DNA from: a virus
Taxonomy: Duplodnaviria; Heunggongvirae; Uroviricota; Caudoviricetes
Reading direction: 5' to 3' (one strand)
Virus record (IMG/VR): IMGVR_UViG_3300047445_000122
Length of the DNA: 64,000 nt
In this document: positions 46,045 to 54,665 of the stretch, in pieces
Position numbering within the stretch: the stretch's first letter is position 1
How the letters are laid out: each line of letters starts with the position of its first letter
Notes under the pieces: generated by a model
Seen by the model: the letters and a program-made list of their open reading frames with translations, nothing else
What the model was told of the DNA's origin: nothing
Database searches by the model: none
Program-made: the position numbers and the translations under genes

Positions 46045-46977
46045 ATGAATCAATATGAATATGAACGCAAGCTGCCGTTCTGGGTCAACTTCTCATTGGC
46101 CACAATGAACACGGATGAGCTTGATCCAGTCTATGTAGCAGCCCGCAACGCCATCCCTATCCTGGGCCGGGAACATGTCTGTCGCTTCTTGATGGGGATG
46201 AGTCTGTACTACGACATGGGTGTGGCTTGCGACCTCGCAGACCGCTCCACTGAAGACACCTTCTGGGACTTGTGCTTTGAAGTGTATCCGACTGCGAAAC
46301 GTGGGACTGAGCGCCGGTACTTCCGGGGTGATGCTGGCTTGACTTGCTTACAGTATATGCGGGACAATTTCGCTGGCCCGGAAGACTTCTTCAAGAAGAC
46401 GTACAGGCCGACCTACAGCGAGTTGCTGAAAGTGTTTAAAGACATCCCCGGCTATGGGGAATATCACACCTGGAAAATCTGGGACTTCTATGACCGCATC
46501 CTGGGCATGCCCGTGGCGTCTGATGAGTCAGCCTTCAAGGCGATGCCGAAGGAGCCGGTGAAGGGTCTGAAGCTGGTGGCCGCTGAGATGAATTGGGATG
46601 ACGACCTGGACCCCAAGATCATCGCCCAATACTGCGTCAACACTCTGCAGAGCATGAACTGTCTCGCCTCCCCGGCGAAGGATCGACTGGTCCACATCGC
46701 TGAAGTGGAAACCAACATGTGTGGTCTCTCGCACTTCTATAAGGGCACTGATTGGGTGGGGGCTGATATCCAAGAGAAGCGCAAGCAACTCAGCGGGATT
46801 GAGGGTCACACCGCCTCTGTGATGCTCCAGAACCTGCCCCCGGAGGTTCCGCGTGACTACTTCAACCCGCCCATCGACATCCTCCAACACCTGAAGGTCA
46901 AGGTCACTCAAGTTGCCATTGAGAAGTACGCAGTGGAGAAACAGAAGAACCAAGACATGTTCTCAATGTTCGCCTGA
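46045..46977 (+). CDS. alpha-glutamyl/putrescinyl-thymine pyrophosphorylase clade 2-like (amino acid:DNA transferase)
   Basis: LDPVY, FL.....YYD.G.A, FW, RGTERRYFRG, G.GEY..WKI.D, ET..C. Confidence 0.75.
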   Translation: MNQYEYERKLPFWVNFSLATMNTDELDPVYVAARNAIPILGREHVCRFLMGMSLYYDMGVACDLADRSTEDTFWDLCFEVYPTAKRGTERRYFRGDAGLTCLQYMRDNFAGPEDFFKKTYRPTYSELLKVFKDIPGYGEYHTWKIWDFYDRILGMPVASDESAFKAMPKEPVKGLKLVAAEMNWDDDLDPKIIAQYCVNTLQSMNCLASPAKDRLVHIAEVETNMCGLSHFYKGTDWVGADIQEKRKQLSGIEGHTASVMLQNLPPEVPRDYFNPPIDILQHLKVKVTQVAIEKYAVEKQKNQDMFSMFA

Positions 46978-46985
46978 CGGTTGAT

Positions 46986-47038
46986 GGTTGATATTGGTAA
47001 GGTTGAGCTAGACTCTTGGCTAGTATTGACGCTATAGT
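46986..47038 (+). promoter_or_regulatory. Box-type promoter, copy 1
   Basis: GGTTGATATTGGTA-N8-CTAGAC-N19-TATAGT. Confidence 0.7.
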
Positions 47039-47072
47039 TCTCTTCATCGCTAACGCACTGAAGGAAACTGAG

Positions 47073-48257: not shown

Positions 48258-49466
48258 ATGAGGGAACACACTGAAGATTACACTGAGGCGATGCGTCGTG
48301 CTATGGAAATGTTGATGGATACTCACTCGCGCTCTATTGATGAGTCAGCCAACCAGCTCATCACTGTACCACGTTCGCGCCCGTTGGTGATGGAGTGCAA
48401 CCCAGACGGCACTACACAACTCCAAACCCTGTATAACACGGAAGCAATCACCATAAGGAACCCGATCATGTTTGATGATGAAGACGAAGAACAGGACTGT
48501 CAGTATGACGCACCAGCTCCCCGGCGTGCTCGTGCTACTCCAGCCCCGAAGCCGGCAGACGCCCTGGTGCGTCAAATGGGCATCGAGCTGACCTTCATGT
48601 CTCCCTACGCTGACGGGAAACCGAACAGCGATGTGGACTCTGAGTTGGCGGGTGGCTATGCTCGCATCCTCCAGGCTATTCTCAACCAACGCAAGGTACG
48701 CTTCAACGACTGCTCCCGCGACATCCGCGCCGTCGAAACCTCCAGCCCGATCTTGAAGACCTGGAGTGAGGTTGAGAAGTTCTACAAGTCTGTATCCAAC
48801 GCTGCGTTGGAGATTGGTCTGCGTCCTCACGTTGAGAAGCTGATCTCAGGCGGTGGTCATATCCACGTGGGCGAACTCAAGCCAGAGCTCATCGCGGCTA
48901 TGTTCCGTGAGGTTCAGAATCGTCCGTGGTTGAACTGGGTCTTCAATGAGCCTGATGACCACAATACGCACTCATACAACTCCAATCTGTCCTCTGTGGA
49001 CTCCAAGTTGAAGAAGGCGTGTATGACCGTGGGTTGTGACCCAACCCTGTTCATGGGAGGTCGCTCCATGTCATCTGAAGCTCAAGTTGGTCTCCTGTTC
49101 TATGGGCCAGTTGAGCACGTGAACCGCGCCTGGTTCCCCAACGACAAGTCCCGCGTGGTACGCTATGCGAAGGAGTATGACACCTTTGAGTTCCGCTTCT
49201 TCCGCGCCCCAAATCACTGGGAGGAGCAGAAAGCCCACGTTGAGTTCGTGGAAGCCTTCATCAAGTATGTTGAGAAGAAGGTCAAGGACAAGGTCAAGAT
49301 CGTGACCGAAATGGATAGCAGCACCAAGTTGCTCGCCTTCACGGCTGAACAATCCAAGGATGAGTTCCTCAAGTTCCTGACCGAACTGGAGCTGAAACAT
49401 GAACCATACCAGGAGCTGATTGACGACAATCTGGCGGACTGGTTCACGCGAGGGAAACGCAAATGA
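48258..49466 (+). CDS. Putative amidoligase (COOH-NH2 ligase type 2)
   Basis: GIELTF, E..SP.L, GGGHIHVG, FEFRFF. Confidence 0.7.
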   Translation: MREHTEDYTEAMRRAMEMLMDTHSRSIDESANQLITVPRSRPLVMECNPDGTTQLQTLYNTEAITIRNPIMFDDEDEEQDCQYDAPAPRRARATPAPKPADALVRQMGIELTFMSPYADGKPNSDVDSELAGGYARILQAILNQRKVRFNDCSRDIRAVETSSPILKTWSEVEKFYKSVSNAALEIGLRPHVEKLISGGGHIHVGELKPELIAAMFREVQNRPWLNWVFNEPDDHNTHSYNSNLSSVDSKLKKACMTVGCDPTLFMGGRSMSSEAQVGLLFYGPVEHVNRAWFPNDKSRVVRYAKEYDTFEFRFFRAPNHWEEQKAHVEFVEAFIKYVEKKVKDKVKIVTEMDSSTKLLAFTAEQSKDEFLKFLTELELKHEPYQELIDDNLADWFTRGKRK

Positions 49467-49966
49467 GCATCAAAGACATCAAGACGATCTTGACCGAGAC
49501 CGAAATCAAGCACCTGGCCCTGATCAACGGCTTCAGCCTGAGGAAGCAAGAAGATGGCAGCTTGAACTTGAACCCATACGTGTACAAGTTCGCTGAGCAG
49601 CTCATCCAGGTCTCGCACGACGCGCTGCTGAACAAGCTGGTGTTGTTCCACATGCATCTCAAGGAGGCGGCTGAGCACCTCCAGAACCGTCACGCCGACG
49701 ATGAAGCTGATGTCTACCTGGACTTCATGAAGGGTTGCCATTTCAACCTGGACTATGGGACAATCGCACGCCTCCATGAAGCAGCCAGGAAGTCCAACTG
49801 GATTCCGCCTGAGTATTACATGAACGACTGGGTCAGCGACTGCGCGACGTTCCTCAAGGAAGGCCCGCAAGCGTTCATCCCAGACGTCAAGCCTCAAGTA
49901 CAACCTCTGGAAGTAGTTGATATTTCCAAGATCAAGTCGATTGACAACCCAACGGTTGATGGTTGA
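49463..49966 (+). CDS. Hypothetical protein
   Basis: LALANGF.LK.Q.DG..L.PYVY.FA-like motif; coupled. Confidence 0.7.
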   Translation: MSIKDIKTILTETEIKHLALINGFSLRKQEDGSLNLNPYVYKFAEQLIQVSHDALLNKLVLFHMHLKEAAEHLQNRHADDEADVYLDFMKGCHFNLDYGTIARLHEAARKSNWIPPEYYMNDWVSDCATFLKEGPQAFIPDVKPQVQPLEVVDISKIKSIDNPTVDG

Positions 49967-50013
49967 TATTGGTAAAGATAAGCTAGACGCCTGTCCGTTA
50001 TTGACCCTATAAT
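49961..50013 (+). promoter_or_regulatory. Box-type promoter, copy 2
   Basis: GGTTGATATTGGTA-N8-CTAGAC-N19-TATAAT. Confidence 0.75.
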
Positions 50014-50103
50014 TCGTTCCACGTCGAGCAAACGACGTTTTACTAACCCACTGAGACCAACCATACCAGTCTCGGTTATGCCCGAAAGGGAAAGGAAACT
50101 ACC

Positions 50104-50595
50104 ATGTCCAAAGACAAAGCACAATCCCCAGCCAAAGTATCCGTTGACTTCAAGCGCGCACGCACCGCCTCCAACGAAATCCGCCGCGCCGCCAAGGTAC
50201 AACGCGAAGCCCAGAAGAAGCTGGCCCGCAAACAGCGCCTGGAAGCTGAAGGCAAGCTGGTAGCCAAGGGCACCGCCCGTGCCAAGCGCCGTGGCTCCAT
50301 GAAGCACTACATGGTGGACTACAAAGCCAAGACCGCAACCCTGACCACCTACGGTGCGAAGCCAGCCGAAGGCGTGATGGCTCGTGTGGTGTTCGCTCCA
50401 TCCCAGAAGGCGGCTCTGCTGGCCTGCGGTATCAAGCCGAAGGAAGTCAGCGACAAGACCGTGGCCAAGAAGATCGTTGCGAGCCTGAAGGGCGACGCTG
50501 ATGTTGCTCCTGCGAGCGAGACCGGCCTGGTGGTCAAGAAGCCACGCGCCAAGAAGGGCGAAGCTCAAGACAACACCTTCGCTCTGGCTGCATGA
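50104..50595 (+). CDS. Basic Lys/Ala-rich protein with ssrA-like C-terminus (...AQDNTFALAA)
   Basis: AAAGGAAAC SD; strong codon bias. Confidence 0.8.
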   Translation: MSKDKAQSPAKVSVDFKRARTASNEIRRAAKVQREAQKKLARKQRLEAEGKLVAKGTARAKRRGSMKHYMVDYKAKTATLTTYGAKPAEGVMARVVFAPSQKAALLACGIKPKEVSDKTVAKKIVASLKGDADVAPASETGLVVKKPRAKKGEAQDNTFALAA

Positions 50596-50765
50596 TCAAG
50601 CTGAAGTTGGTCTCTGGATACGATGTCTTTATTAACGTGAAGTACATCGTATCCATTACCCCAGGCCCGGACCATCACAGCCGCTGTCATATTTCCACTG
50701 TCAACGGTGAGTTTTCGGTGGCGATGAACGCATCGGCCGTGATGATGCTGATGTCCGGCAAATAA
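50592..50765 (+). CDS. 57-aa small protein (FlbD-like pattern)
   Basis: MIKLKLVSG..VFINV..I.SI; ATGA overlap with upstream stop. Confidence 0.55.
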   Translation: MIKLKLVSGYDVFINVKYIVSITPGPDHHSRCHISTVNGEFSVAMNASAVMMLMSGK

Positions 50766-50777
50766 GTAGCAAATACT

Positions 50778-50825
50778 GGCACAGTGAGTGCCTTTTATCA
50801 ACGCAACCAGAGAGGTAGCAAAATG
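50778..50825 (+). promoter_or_regulatory. Duplicated NAD-gene leader, copy 1
   Basis: GGCAC-AGTGA-GTGCC-TTTTATCAACGCAACCAGAGAGGTAGCAAAATG. Confidence 0.75.
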
Positions 50826-51863
50826 AGTGAAAAGAAAGACCTGGCTGTCGCAATCATGCGCATCCAACCCCTGCATGACATGCACAAGCACTTGATCGAT
50901 GAAGCGTTCAAGGTCGGCAAACAAGTCCTGATCCTGGTGGGTTCCTCCCACCGCGCCCGCAACATCAAGAATCCGTTCACCTTCGAGGAGCGGAAGGCGA
51001 TGGTCAAGAAGCTGTTCCCGGACGCAATCGTGGAACCTGTCGTTGACTACATGTATGACGACGACAAGTGGATTGCCAAGGTACAAGCGACCGTCGCTGG
51101 CGTCTGTGAGAACTACGGCGCGAATCCCAACAGCATCGTGCTCGTGGGTCACAAGAAGGACAGTTCCAGTTTCTACCTGGACTTGTTCAAGCAGTGGTCC
51201 TACCATGAAGTTGTTCCGTCCCGGAAACTGGATGCCACCAAGATTCGCTCCTATCTGTTCGCCAAGGACTTGGTTGCGGATGATTCGGCTGTCCCGTTCC
51301 TGCGTGAGATGGTTCCTGCGTCGATCATGGGCAACATTGACTTCTGGTCCAACACTGACGACTACCGCAACCTGGTTGAGGAGTATGCCAACATCCAGAA
51401 GTACAAGGCGGCTTGGGCGTCTGCTCCGTATCAACCCACGTTCGTCACGACAGACGCCATCGTGACTTGCGCCGGTCACGTGCTCATGATCCGTCGCAAG
51501 TTCGCTCCGGGGAAAGGTCTGTTGGCCCTGCCTGGTGGCTTCCTGAACCCAGGTGAGCGCATCATCCAGGGTATCCTGCGTGAACTCAAGGAAGAGACAC
51601 AGATCAACGTTGGTCGTGGCATGTTGGAATCCATGATCCGTGAAATCCGTGTGTTCGACCATCCAGATCGCAGCCTGCGCGGCCGCACCATCACCCACAC
51701 AGCTCACATTCCTCTGAACTTCAAGGTTCTGCCTGAAGTGAAGGGCGATGACGACGCCGATGGGGCAATGTGGGTTCCCTTCTATGATCTGGCGCTGAAC
51801 CGTGACCAAATCTTTGAAGACCACGGCGACCAAATCAGCTCCATGACCGGGGTTGATCTGTAA
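50823..51863 (+). CDS. nadM: Bifunctional NMN adenylyltransferase / Nudix hydrolase (NadM-Nudix, NatV-like)
   Basis: RIQPLHDMH, VGSS...KNPFTFEER, GH.KD.SS.YL..F, Nudix GGF..PGE....LRELKEET. Confidence 0.92.
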   Translation: MSEKKDLAVAIMRIQPLHDMHKHLIDEAFKVGKQVLILVGSSHRARNIKNPFTFEERKAMVKKLFPDAIVEPVVDYMYDDDKWIAKVQATVAGVCENYGANPNSIVLVGHKKDSSSFYLDLFKQWSYHEVVPSRKLDATKIRSYLFAKDLVADDSAVPFLREMVPASIMGNIDFWSNTDDYRNLVEEYANIQKYKAAWASAPYQPTFVTTDAIVTCAGHVLMIRRKFAPGKGLLALPGGFLNPGERIIQGILRELKEETQINVGRGMLESMIREIRVFDHPDRSLRGRTITHTAHIPLNFKVLPEVKGDDDADGAMWVPFYDLALNRDQIFEDHGDQISSMTGVDL

Positions 51864-51870
51864 CACAACT

Positions 51871-51918
51871 CCCACAGTGAGTGGGTTTTATCAACGCAAC
51901 CAGAGAGGTAGCAAAATG
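51871..51918 (+). promoter_or_regulatory. Duplicated NAD-gene leader, copy 2
   Basis: CCCAC-AGTGA-GTGGG-TTTTATCAACGCAACCAGAGAGGTAGCAAAATG. Confidence 0.75.
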
Positions 51919-53397
51919 AAGAAAAGTATCATCCAAGCAAGCGTGGCCGGCATCTTCGCCATGAGCATGAGTATCAACGACTACATCAACAACCCACTGT
52001 TCGACACGGACAGCTACAAGATCACCCACCCTTGGCAATATGAAGAGGGTATGGATGGGATTGTGGCTTACATCGAAGCACGCGGCGGTGCTGATGAAAC
52101 CATGTGGGCAGGTATGCAGACTGTTATCCACGAGACCCTGACCAAGCAGATCACTGCCGACTGGGTTGATGAAGCGGAAGCCTTCTGGACTGAACACATC
52201 GGCTACTTCTACCGCCCAGGCTGGGACTATGTGGTCAACGAGTGCAATGGCTACATCCCCATTGACATCTACAGTGCGCCTGAAGGTCTGGTGATCCCGA
52301 CCAAGAACGCGCTGGCGGTGGTGTGGTGCGATGATCCTGTTTTCGCTCCTTGCATGCAACATCTGGAAACCCTGCTGCTGCGTCCATGGTACACCTCCTC
52401 CGTGGGCACCATCAGCTACCAGGCCAAAGAAATGATCCTGGATGGTATGCTGGAGTCCTGCGACACTCTGGACAAGCTGCCATGGATGCTCCACGACTTC
52501 GGTGCCCGTGGTGTGTCCTCGCCTCAATCTGCCGCTCTGGGCGGGATGGCGCACTTGATCAACTTCCAGGGTTCAGACACCGGCCTGGGCATCATCGGTG
52601 CGCGTCTGTGGTACGATTGCCACATGGCTGGCTATTCCATCCCGGCTTCCGAGCACGCCACGATCACTTCGTGGGGTCTGGACACCAAGGGTGAAACTGC
52701 GGCCTTCCGCAACATGATCAAGGCTTTCGGCAAGTCGGCCATCTTCGCTTGCGTGAGCGACGGCAACGACATTGAGAAGGCCACCGGCGAAATCTGGGGC
52801 ACTGCGCTCTACGATGAAGTCATGGCCATGAACGCCACGCTGGTGATCCGCCCGGACTCCGGTGACCCGATTGAGTGGTTGCCGAAGCTGTTGCGTATCC
52901 TGGATGCCAAGTTCGGCTCCGTGAAGAACAGCAAGGGCTACAAGGTGCTCAACAAGGTACGTCTGATCCAAGGCGACGGCGTGACTATCAAGTCCCTGCC
53001 GCTGATGATCAAGGCCATCCTGGATGCTGGTTTCTCGCTGGACAACGTCGCCTTCGGTATGGGCGGTGGTCTTCTCCAAAAGGTTGACCGTGACACGTTC
53101 AAGTGGGCAATGAAGTGCTGCGCCATTCGCATCAATGGTGAGTGGAAGGAAGTCTTCAAAGACCCAGCCACTGACCCAGGCAAGAAGTCCAAGCGTGGTT
53201 TCCCGGCTCTGTATCGCAACAAGGAGACCGGCGAATACAAGACCCTGGCTGGCTTGCAACATGAGCACCCTGGCGTTGATTGGGAAGGCATTCTGCAACC
53301 GATCTATCGCCACAGCCGCATCCTGCCACAACCGATGATCCATCGCATCAAGTTCTCGGAAATGCGTTACAACGCAAGTCTGAAACTCAATCTGTAA
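51916..53397 (+). CDS. nadV: Nicotinamide phosphoribosyltransferase (NAMPT)
   Basis: DTDSYKITH, LHDFGARGVSS, SIPASEH, RPDSGDP, IQGDG, FGMGGGLLQ. Confidence 0.95.
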   Translation: MKKSIIQASVAGIFAMSMSINDYINNPLFDTDSYKITHPWQYEEGMDGIVAYIEARGGADETMWAGMQTVIHETLTKQITADWVDEAEAFWTEHIGYFYRPGWDYVVNECNGYIPIDIYSAPEGLVIPTKNALAVVWCDDPVFAPCMQHLETLLLRPWYTSSVGTISYQAKEMILDGMLESCDTLDKLPWMLHDFGARGVSSPQSAALGGMAHLINFQGSDTGLGIIGARLWYDCHMAGYSIPASEHATITSWGLDTKGETAAFRNMIKAFGKSAIFACVSDGNDIEKATGEIWGTALYDEVMAMNATLVIRPDSGDPIEWLPKLLRILDAKFGSVKNSKGYKVLNKVRLIQGDGVTIKSLPLMIKAILDAGFSLDNVAFGMGGGLLQKVDRDTFKWAMKCCAIRINGEWKEVFKDPATDPGKKSKRGFPALYRNKETGEYKTLAGLQHEHPGVDWEGILQPIYRHSRILPQPMIHRIKFSEMRYNASLKLNL

Positions 53398-53473
53398 CTT
53401 GTAACACCCGCTTCACCTCCATTTCAATTTGCGCCTCTGGGATTTATCCCAGAGGCGATTTTTTATTTGGAGA

Positions 53474-53506
53474 CCACTTTACTTTCCTAGCATCATCAAT
53501 TATGAT
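53474..53506 (+). promoter_or_regulatory. Early promoter
   Basis: CCACTTTACT-N17-TATGAT. Confidence 0.8.
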
Positions 53507-53557
53507 TCTCTTACGTTGGTACACTGACTGACGCAACTTGATATAGGAAACTACATT

Positions 53558-53974
53558 ATGGCAAACAACATCACCCGCAACCTCGCCCTCTACACCAAAG
53601 TTGAGGAAGTCCTGCGCCGGGCCATGGAAGAGAACAAGCCTCAAGTGATGGCTGATATCATGAAGAACAGCGACATCATGCAGCTCAACTCCAGCCTCAG
53701 CCAAGTCCAGAACGTCGTGAGCCAGCTGGTGAAGAAGAAATTGGTGAACAAAGTTGTGATGCCGCGTGACCACCACCCGCGCAACACTCCCGGCTACGTG
53801 TGGATCCAAGGTGCTGAGTGGCCAGAGAACAAGCACCCTCGCAAACACTCCAAGGTGAAGGTCATCACCCCGCCACCGCAAGAGCCGACTGAGGTGGAGA
53901 TCACTGTCCAAGGCATCACGGTGGTGATCGGGAAGAACCCATCCACCGGACGATTGAAGATCACCATCGAATAA
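53558..53974 (+). CDS. Hypothetical early protein (winged-helix-like)
   Basis: TAGGAAAC SD; own promoter and terminator. Confidence 0.75.
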   Translation: MANNITRNLALYTKVEEVLRRAMEENKPQVMADIMKNSDIMQLNSSLSQVQNVVSQLVKKKLVNKVVMPRDHHPRNTPGYVWIQGAEWPENKHPRKHSKVKVITPPPQEPTEVEITVQGITVVIGKNPSTGRLKITIE

Positions 53975-54116
53975 CAAGAACAAGCGCCCTCCGGGGCGCT
54001 TTTTTATTGCCTGACGAATTCACAACAGCATTTTCCCGAAAGTCAATTTTCTCAACCTGTAATATCAACCACTTACGGCTTGATAATTGATGTCCCTGTA
54101 CCACTGGTCAACTGCT

Positions 54117-54169
54117 GGTTGATATTGGTATAATAGCCCTAGACGGCTGGCCTTCGTTGATCATATAAT
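54117..54169 (+). promoter_or_regulatory. Box-type promoter, copy 3
   Basis: GGTTGATATTGGTA-N8-CTAGAC-N19-TATAAT; inverted box AATATCAACC at 54061-54070. Confidence 0.75.
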
Positions 54170-54200
54170 TCTCCTACGTCGAACAAACGCAGGAGCAAGA

Positions 54201-54665
54201 ATGATTAAGCAGGAATTGGAAGGGAATCTGTTGTCGCTGTTTGCCTCAGATCGCAGCACCCGCCCCTTCAACGCAATCGCCCACGGATGCAACTGCTTCC
54301 ACACTATGGGCGGTGGCATTGCCCGCCCTATCTCCCAGGCCTATCCTGAAGTCTTGGAAGCTGACCGACGCACCCGCTATGGCGTGGCCAACAAACTCGG
54401 CCAGTACAGCGCTGCTGCGACCCGCGATGGTATGGTGTTCAACATGTACACTCAATTCACTCCAGGTCTTAATGGTCGCCTCTGGGCAGTTGCCGAAGCC
54501 TTCAAGAAGGTCAACAAGGACATCGCTACCATGGGTATGGACATCACCCTGGGTATCCCACTGATCGGTTGTGGGATCGCCGGTCTGTCCTGGGAAGAGG
54601 TCAAGGAGCAGATCAACCTCAACACACCTGACGTCAACATCATCGTAGTACACTTCAAACCCTAA
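54201..54665 (+). CDS. Macro-domain protein (T4 Tk.4-like)
   Basis: IAHGCNCFHTMGGGIA, NMYTQ, PLIGCGIAGLSW. Confidence 0.88.
   Translation: MIKQELEGNLLSLFASDRSTRPFNAIAHGCNCFHTMGGGIARPISQAYPEVLEADRRTRYGVANKLGQYSAAATRDGMVFNMYTQFTPGLNGRLWAVAEAFKKVNKDIATMGMDITLGIPLIGCGIAGLSWEEVKEQINLNTPDVNIIVVHFKP

Follow-up and report, generated by a model that had tools for sequence, protein, structure and literature searches.

A two-hairpin RNA leader at the start codons of the NAD-salvage genes nadM and nadV in an uncultured tailed phage and in bacteria

Why should two neighboring nicotinamide adenine dinucleotide (NAD) salvage genes of an uncultured phage begin behind almost the same short leader? The question is raised by a stretch of 64,000 nucleotides (64 kb, here called the window) from IMG/VR record IMGVR_UViG_3300047445_000122, a virus of the class Caudoviricetes, in which nadM-Nudix and nadV follow one another on the plus strand. 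A first-pass annotation of the sequence had proposed that the two genes share a structured regulatory element. We find that the leader is a strand-specific RNA structure under selection and tied to NAD-salvage genes, with the Shine-Dalgarno sequence (SD) inside a marginal hairpin beside the AUG. About 100 metagenomic loci and 80 loci of named bacteria show the same layout upstream of nadM and nadV. Judging from these sequence patterns, the leader probably controls translation of the NAD-salvage genes via an effector, which would be a protein or a metabolite.

Two near-identical leaders in one phage genome

Reading of the sequence and a repeat search over the 64 kb yielded a 52-nucleotide (nt) direct repeat, family D15, whose two copies are identical at 48 of 52 positions. 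This confirms the leader first described as common to nadM and nadV, and extends it by 3 nt (ACT) at the 5' end and by 1 nt beyond the ATG. The start codons are the ATG at 50823 for nadM-Nudix and the ATG at 51916 for nadV. Each copy contains two predicted hairpins, HP1 and HP2, with the following coordinates and RNAfold energies.

50775 to 50826, plus strand: leader copy 1, before nadM-Nudix; 52-nt repeat D15
50778 to 50792, plus strand: HP1 of copy 1, GGCAC-AGUGA-GUGCC; -6.8 kcal/mol
50793 to 50802, plus strand: U-rich linker without G, UUUUAUCAAC, from the sequence; the linker is G-poor family-wide
50803 to 50819, plus strand: HP2 of copy 1 with the SD, from folding; -3.5 kcal/mol
51868 to 51919, plus strand: leader copy 2, before nadV; 52-nt repeat D15
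51871 to 51885, plus strand: HP1 of copy 2, CCCAC-AGUGA-GUGGG; -6.7 kcal/mol
51896 to 51912, plus strand: HP2 of copy 2 with the SD, same sequence as HP2 of copy 1; from sequence and folding

Both copies show the order HP1 stem, UUUU, common block, ATG. All four differences between them are confined to the two outer pairs of the 5-bp HP1 stem, where GG/CC in one copy stands against CC/GG in the other, and the loop is AGUGA in both; the 5-bp hairpin with two compensatory pairs reported in the first-pass annotation is thus fully borne out. Hybrid HP1 stems that mix the arms of the two copies reach merely -0.8 to -1.5 kcal/mol. By our own simple combinatorial estimate, the chance that four random substitutions in 52 nt give two complementary double changes in one 5-bp stem is about 4e-6. 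Since the sole differences are compensatory, they show selection on the HP1 stem. The same changes also prevent each HP1 from pairing with the arms of the other copy, although any importance of this inability to cross-pair is speculation.

The common block forms the second, weak hairpin, HP2 (GCAACC-AGAGA-GGUAGC, with one A.A mismatch). The SD, GAGG (50812 to 50815 in copy 1), lies partly in the loop and partly in the 3' arm of HP2, and the AUG lies 3 nt past the HP2 stem. The first description had the order of hairpin, U tract, and SD right, but it overlooked this second, SD-bearing hairpin, and the U tract proves to be a feature of a subtype only. Searches of the 64 kb with a 33-mer, the hairpin core, and the SD block gave two occurrences each, even at <=3 mismatches, compared with 0 to 0.01 in shuffles, so the element indeed occurs nowhere else in the window. 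An identical copy of leader copy 2 was found on an independent Joint Genome Institute (JGI) contig, L003.

Two further pairings were considered and dropped. Copy 1 would allow CCUUUU to pair with the SD, but copy 2, which has GGUUUU, would not, and this pairing was discarded by eye; a helix of the U-rich linker with codons 2 to 4 was seen in some folds and is not conserved. Immediately upstream of copy 1, the 8-mer GTAGCAAA (50766 to 50773) repeats the tail of the leader itself (GGTAGCAAAATG), and it may be the scar of an older duplication, or chance.

The same architecture in relatives and in a wider family

The nearest NadM and NadV proteins were found on Logan and NCBI metagenome contigs (L002, L004, L005/L006, L007, and L184), with 47 to 56% identity to the window protein for NadM and 54 to 73% for NadV. 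Their nadM and nadV leaders have the same layout with different stems, as the following examples show.

L005 nadM leader: HP1 GACCC-GGUGA-GGGUC; HP2 GCAACC-AGUGA-GGUAGC
L005 nadV leader: HP1 UCCCC-GGCGA-GGGGA; HP2 AACC-AGUGA-GGUU
L002 nadV leader: HP1 GACCC-AGAGA-GGGUC
L004 nadV leader: HP1 UCUCAAU-AUUGA-AUUGAGA; HP2 UGAUAU-GGAGA-AUAUCA

RNAfold predicted both hairpins independently in eight of the nine leaders from the window and its closest relatives. In an alignment of this clade (A3, 6 sequences), HP1 is 100% paired, with double changes at three of five pairs, and HP2 is 75% paired, with double changes at two of six. The SD box AACCARWGAGG occurs only upstream of nadM and nadV in the window, L002, L005/L006, and L007, and this exclusivity holds despite three intervening small open reading frames (ORFs) in L005 or an HNH endonuclease gene in L007. 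The latter gene (L007, 2657 to 3166) is inserted between nadM and nadV, each of which retains its own SD-box hairpin.

One cultured phage, Ralstonia phage RSL1, has the window subtype before both ORF104 (nadM; HP2 UAUCC-AGAGA-GGAUA) and ORF106 (nadV; HP2 UUUCC-AGAGA-GGAAA), with a tetraloop on HP1 and a linker that includes UCAUCAAC. The subtype is rare, being common to RSL1 and four or five uncultured phage contigs. A covariance model made from the window clade (R1) gave one weak match in the RSL1 genome, at the nadM leader (11.7 bits, E 0.9), and a search of IMG/VR with the subtype pattern returned RSL1 itself and two matches unrelated to NAD genes. Exact leader patterns had no match in IMG/VR, and a NadV peptide scan of IMG/VR found no relative. 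Megablast of positions 49500 to 54000 against deposited phages found no DNA relative, and blastn with the leader alone gave nothing beyond chance matches, at E values of 1 or more.

The layout of the wider family comprises HP1 with a pentaloop ending in GA, a G-poor linker, the SD-bearing HP2, and the AUG. The wider set was drawn from the nadM and nadV leaders of 80 further metagenome loci, with NadM identities of 39 to 48% and GC contents of about 30 to 70%; start codons in the metagenome loci were assigned by a heuristic. A simple parser recovered both hairpins in 103 of 143 leaders from 87 loci. Among the parsed leaders, the HP1 loops were AUAGA (44), ACAGA (15), AGAGA (13), AGUGA (11), GGUGA (6), AAAGA (6), and others, and the HP2 loops included GGAGU (32), GGAGC (25), GGAUU (15), and GGAGA (9). 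Conservation across the HP1 loop amounts to 92% A at position 1, 97% A at position 3, 100% G at position 4, and 100% A at position 5, with any nucleotide at position 2. The linker columns adjoining HP2 hold 0 to 2% G, and HP2 ends 0 to 6 nt from the start codon.

The stems of the family covary throughout. In an alignment of 48 sequences (A4), 89.7% of the cells are paired, compared with 54.7% in shuffles, and double changes occur at 13 of 13 pairs, with 211 double-change cells against 66 in shuffles and <=72 in slid controls. A model-aligned set of 104 distinct sequences (A5) is 91.8% paired (50.7% when shuffled), with 521 double-change cells against 163. The element is thus present in homologous loci, whose lack of it the first-pass annotation had named as a refutation, and the covariation that the first-pass annotation had proposed to look for upstream of homologous nadM and nadV genes is found at every pair of A4. 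By mean folding energy, HP1 is stable (-8.4 kcal/mol) and HP2 is marginal (-2.3 kcal/mol); such a weak HP2, maintained by covariation all the same, is what one would expect of a helix dependent on a partner.

The near-identity of the two window copies can be judged against this family. Over the 25 nt before the start codon, nadM and nadV leaders of the same genome have a mean identity of 36%, and those of different genomes 30%; the window pair, at 100%, is the extreme, followed by L055, L005, and L011. This difference from the mean shows a recent homogenization in the window lineage, by gene conversion or duplication, over an old structured leader. The same identity might suggest that the repeat is only a neutral recent duplication or conversion of an SD region, with a function limited to ribosome binding. 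Such an origin would leave the compensatory nature of all four differences to chance, and it does not account for the same architecture, in other sequences and with all pairs covarying, before the same genes where the proteins are 40 to 60% identical; we consider it very improbable.

The U tract suggests another reading, in which HP1 with its U tract acts as an attenuator or weak intrinsic terminator that stops some transcripts before each gene and so tunes dosage. A U-rich tract is usual after HP1 in the window clade, and both copies of HP1 come up as terminator-like in a lenient scan (5 bp, 4 GC pairs, then TTTTAT). However, a 5-bp stem of -6.8 kcal/mol with four U residues compares poorly with the phage's own terminators, which have 11 to 12 bp and longer T runs. 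Across the wider family, HP1 is followed by a linker rich in A, C, and U and not by a U tract, and attenuation would leave HP2 and the conserved loop unexplained. It seems improbable to us.

The association with NAD salvage was assessed with a second model, R2, which was trained without the window clade. Its matches number 110 across the metagenome loci (614 kb) and 142 across the named bacterial loci (522 kb). These precede nadM, nadV, nadA (L051), pnuC (L008 and L012), or an SPFH/Band_7 gene, the exceptions being two upstream of ORFs without a Pfam family (L057 and L029). Carriers include many Xanthomonas species, Lysobacter, Caulobacter, Sphingomonas, Pseudoalteromonas luteoviolacea, Hahella, and Thiothrix. 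Five whole bacterial genomes of 5 to 6 Mb had matches at the nadM/nadV(/SPFH) locus only, save one weak Caulobacter match, and the 312-kb genome of Xanthomonas phage RTH11 had two in all, which are its nadM and nadV leaders. A gene-blind sequence pattern gave 13 matches in IMG/VR. Five of them immediately precede nadM and five nadV, and the remaining three seem due to chance, two lying within coding sequence and one being uncertain. A class-wide scan with strict filters found a match in 2 of 151 genomes. Because the whole-genome scans and the gene-blind search agree, the NAD-salvage association is not an artifact of how the loci were collected. Together with the covariation, they support the earlier proposal that the two NAD genes have a structured cis element of their own; the tie to NAD genes stands, but that proposal had missed a very widespread family that occurs in bacteria as well as phages.

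Several observations were made at individual carriers. In several gammaproteobacteria and one metagenome contig (L090, L094, L106, L161, and L054), an SPFH/Band_7 gene follows nadV with a leader copy of its own, and this gene is an unexplained member of the NAD-salvage regulon. The weak leader-like match in Caulobacter sp. Root655 (L179, 1501 to 1565, minus strand, 23.9 bits) lies directly before a TonB-dependent receptor gene, which may be an uptake gene of the same regulon. A permuted tmRNA (transfer-messenger RNA) gene of the betaproteobacterial type lies just upstream of the nadM leader in L064 (760 to 1152; Rfam, 138 bits). In Acidovorax phage ACP17 (L187, about 2440 to 2500), the annotated start of NMNAT-Nudix looks too far downstream; a GTG after a canonical GUA-GGAGU-UAC hairpin gives the N terminus MSQK, which resembles the MSEK of the window protein.

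At the DNA level, the repeat might serve as a recombination or cassette-shuffling repeat, similar to the PeSL cassettes (early promoter plus stem-loop) of T4-like phages, as a promoter, or as an operator for a regulator such as NrtR. Direct repeats do flank nadM, the HNH endonuclease gene of L007 sits between nadM and nadV, and the window genome has other repeated intergenic cassettes. Yet all 252 of the 252 R2 matches fall on the coding strand of the gene that they precede, and the repeat is without a promoter consensus. Stems that vary freely around a fixed loop are the opposite of a palindromic protein operator; for NrtR and NadR, the operators known are palindromes of conserved sequence that lie in promoter regions (PMC2330246). 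We give a DNA-level role little credence.

The window leaders lie on the coding strand directly 5' of the nadM and nadV start codons, as family members do; their HP1 is a covarying stem with a 5-nt loop ending in GA; and their linker has zero G, matching the single-stranded G-poor linker of the family (about 5 to 25 nt). They lack the main-type A-N-A-G-A loop closed by G-C and have AGUGA closed by C-G, a minority type seen in 21 of 74 parsed leaders, such as L016, L023, L045, and L048. Where the family has the SD in a GGAGN pentaloop, their HP2 has an AGUGA-like loop (AGAGA), with the SD divided between loop and 3' arm, and this AGUGA-like form recurs in RSL1, L002, L005, and L007.

A number of points weigh against our reading of the window element as one of a family of regulatory RNA leaders. 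R2 leaves the window copies outside its 23 best matches in the window, and R3, likewise trained without the window clade, scores them at 9.4 bits (E 5.6). Their HP2 is weak and interrupted by its A.A mismatch. For the family as a whole, seed leaders were picked for having hairpins and A5 was fitted to the model, which inflates the percentages paired but not the diversity of pair types, and covariance-model E values are rough. The search of the family turned up neither an alternative structure that could be an expression platform nor a partner with which the HP1 loop could form a pseudoknot; the variable loop positions covary only with the closing pair, that is, with subtype, and with lineage-level signals. 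Leaders are also co-inherited with their genes, so that the gene association partly reflects descent. As to the scores, the models miss the window copies because the most informative positions differ there, namely the closing pair and loop of HP1 and the loop of HP2. Intermediates exist, in that L016 joins C-AGUGA-G in HP1 to a GGAGA HP2, and L023, L045, and L048 join C-AGUGA-G to a GGAGU HP2. On the basis of architecture, position, gene association, and these intermediate forms, and not of model score, we classify the window element as a divergent subtype of the family.

Operon context and proposed role

The genes and signals around the two leaders are as follows.

49952 to 50015, plus strand: promoter-like repeat D5 (TAGACG-18 nt-TATAAT); consensus match only
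50104 to 50595 and 50592 to 50765: small ORFs between the D5 repeat and nadM; from the sequence
50823 to 51863, plus strand: nadM-Nudix, nicotinamide mononucleotide (NMN) adenylyltransferase plus Nudix, 346 amino acids; Pfam CTP_transf_like and NUDIX
51916 to 53397, plus strand: nadV, nicotinamide phosphoribosyltransferase, 493 amino acids; Pfam NAMPT_N and NAPRTase
53432 to 53457, plus strand: strong terminator-like hairpin (11 bp and a T run) closing the operon; terminator scan

From its sequence, the D5 repeat at 49952 to 50015 probably starts an operon orf163-orf57-nadM-nadV, and this promoter-like repeat upstream, together with the terminator-like hairpin downstream, places both leaders inside one probable operon transcript. 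The 163-residue ORF upstream of nadM is not homologous to the same-size ORFs of L004 and L007, and no Pfam or PHROG family was found for it. D5 itself is a 64-nt repeat in three plus-strand copies (46977 to 47040, 49952 to 50015, and 54108 to 54171) that ends in TAGAC..-18 nt-TATAAT; one copy lies upstream of the NAD operon and one upstream of a macro-domain gene, and D5 may be a promoter class common to the NAD-related genes of the window. The macro-domain protein (PF01661; PHROG 335, 'phosphatase'; 54201 to 54665, plus strand) is encoded 0.8 kb downstream of nadV and is probably an ADP-ribose-related enzyme of the same NAD conflict module; L184 has a similar macro-domain gene near its NAD genes. 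The best R3 match in the window (54542 to 54595, minus strand, 15.8 bits, E 0.17, loop GG-ACAGA-CC) is antisense to this gene and most likely chance. Other repeats of the window include a large family of promoter-like repeats on both strands with a fixed CCACTTTACTT box upstream of TATAAT (D1, D7, and D11 to D13; sites include 12680, 35816, 36297, 44978, 56793, and 57607) and a repeated leader GAAAGGAACTACA..CAT on small minus-strand genes (D4 and D9).

NadV and NadM-Nudix make up the NARP2 pathway, by which phages restore NAD+ once an NAD-depleting defence has acted. NARP2 is reported to over-produce NAD+ and to consume phosphoribosyl pyrophosphate (PRPP) (Osterman et al., bioRxiv 10.1101/2024.02.11.579819), and this overproduction and PRPP drain give a reason for control. 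The same paper does not mention regulation of NARP2. On balance, we favor a model in which the leader acts as RNA, on the coding strand and at translation initiation, as a structured mRNA leader with effector-gated translation of the NAD-salvage genes. HP2 would gate access of the ribosome to the SD and AUG, and the conserved HP1 loop, joined in the window subtype by the similar HP2 loop, would contact a trans-acting effector that stabilizes or opens the gated state of HP2. Both enzymes of the PRPP-consuming, NAD-rebuilding pathway could in this way be set together from one operon transcript.

As to the effector, a protein is our tentative choice, by analogy with known RNA-binding systems. The slight lean arises because short fixed loops on free stems, with lineage-specific loop subtypes, are typical of protein-recognized hairpins, and the few conserved nucleotides outside the SD (4 to 6) offer little for a ligand pocket. 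NadM-Nudix, which the first-pass annotation had also considered, is a candidate only because it is always present, and the evidence neither supports nor excludes it. NadM was found in every motif-bearing record checked, including G106 and five IMG/VR records; this constancy is uninformative on an effector role because the pathway needs both enzymes anyway.

A small molecule as the effector appears rather doubtful. In that case the leader would combine aptamer and expression platform in a new class of very small riboswitches, of which the window subtype would be a variant; we attach a similarly low probability to this assignment. Such a riboswitch would sense NAD+, NMN, nicotinamide, ADP-ribose, or PRPP, its two purine-rich loops docking into a pocket while HP2 gates the SD, and it would turn on the NAD+-rebuilding counter-defence of the phage only when host immunity has depleted NAD+. 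A small loop-docking riboswitch would fit the wide, patchy spread together with a gene cassette.

Sensing may also be absent altogether. In a constitutive structural leader, HP1 would protect or define the end of the mRNA, either by blocking 5'-end-dependent decay or by marking a processing site within the operon, the linker would serve as a standby site, and HP2 would present the SD, all at a constant rate of translation. In many phage-like contigs, HP1 lies a few nucleotides after a TTGACA-N17-TATAAT promoter, that is, at the 5' end of the transcript; an unstructured, G-poor linker between a stable and a weak hairpin also suits a standby site, and no alternative fold was found. A stabilizer or standby role, however, needs no invariant A-N-A-G-A loop and does not explain the near-restriction to NAD genes seen in whole genomes and in the gene-blind search. 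We regard a purely constitutive leader as unlikely, and continue to prefer effector-gated translation.

Conserved at precisely these genes in many phages and in bacteria such as Xanthomonas, Lysobacter, and Caulobacter, the leader points to an unrecognized level of regulation of both NAD salvage and a phage counter-defence. With a metabolite as effector, the leader would represent a third class of NAD-related riboswitch; with a protein, the two would be a new regulatory pair of RNA and protein. Some carriers can be cultured, namely Ralstonia phage RSL1, Xanthomonas phage RTH11, and Xanthomonas species, which makes the question directly testable.

Comparison with known systems

The leader family is apparently undescribed. 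Rfam 15 had no relevant match for window positions 49000 to 54500 at E<=10 or for 12 canonical loci at E<=5, and no description of such a leader was found in the literature searched. The Rfam comparison agrees with the earlier remark that the element is unlike the known NAD riboswitch classes.

The NAD+-II riboswitch, or pnuC motif, is similar in being a short 5' leader before an NAD gene, with the ribosome binding site held in structure and a proposed OFF-type translational control. It consists of P1, P1a, a pseudoknot onto the ribosome binding site, and a highly conserved internal core, and is confined to Streptococcus pnuC genes (Panchapakesan et al. 2021, PMC7749635). The window family, in contrast, consists of two hairpins that stand apart and have conserved loops; the pseudoknot search found none in it, and it has no match to this class in Rfam. 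The NAD+-I riboswitch, or nadA motif, likewise places tandem stem-loop domains before an NAD biosynthesis gene, and one member of the window family precedes nadA. By comparison, each domain of the nadA motif is a larger, bulged stem that contains a conserved internal loop, and Rfam again gave no match.

RNA sites recognized by proteins, such as the translational operators of T4-type phages (that of gene 43, encoding DNA polymerase, and the sites of RegA and gene 32) and the boxB pentaloop hairpin of lambda N, resemble the window leaders in anatomy: a small hairpin whose loop is fixed while its 5-bp stem varies, placed by or over the SD. The window family has another loop sequence, two hairpins, a link to NAD genes, and an occurrence in bacteria. 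Regulation by NrtR and NadR concerns a similar gene set and would serve the same physiological role. Those proteins are DNA-binding repressors of nadM-nadV, nadA, pnuC, and prs-nadV whose operators are conserved palindromes within the promoters (Rodionov et al. 2008, PMC2330246). What that paper describes ahead of nadM-nadV is thus a set of DNA sites and not the present RNA. The window family differs in being strand specific, in its covarying stems, and in standing at each start codon even inside operons.

Standby-site leaders such as that of tisB also combine a 5' hairpin, a single-stranded G-poor stretch, and a structured ribosome binding site. In contrast to the leaders described here, a standby site requires no conserved loop, and such sites are not known to be linked to a single pathway. 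The PeSL cassettes of T4-like phages, finally, place an early promoter and a stem-loop between many small genes; unlike these, the window repeat carries no promoter consensus and is present in two copies only, both at NAD genes.

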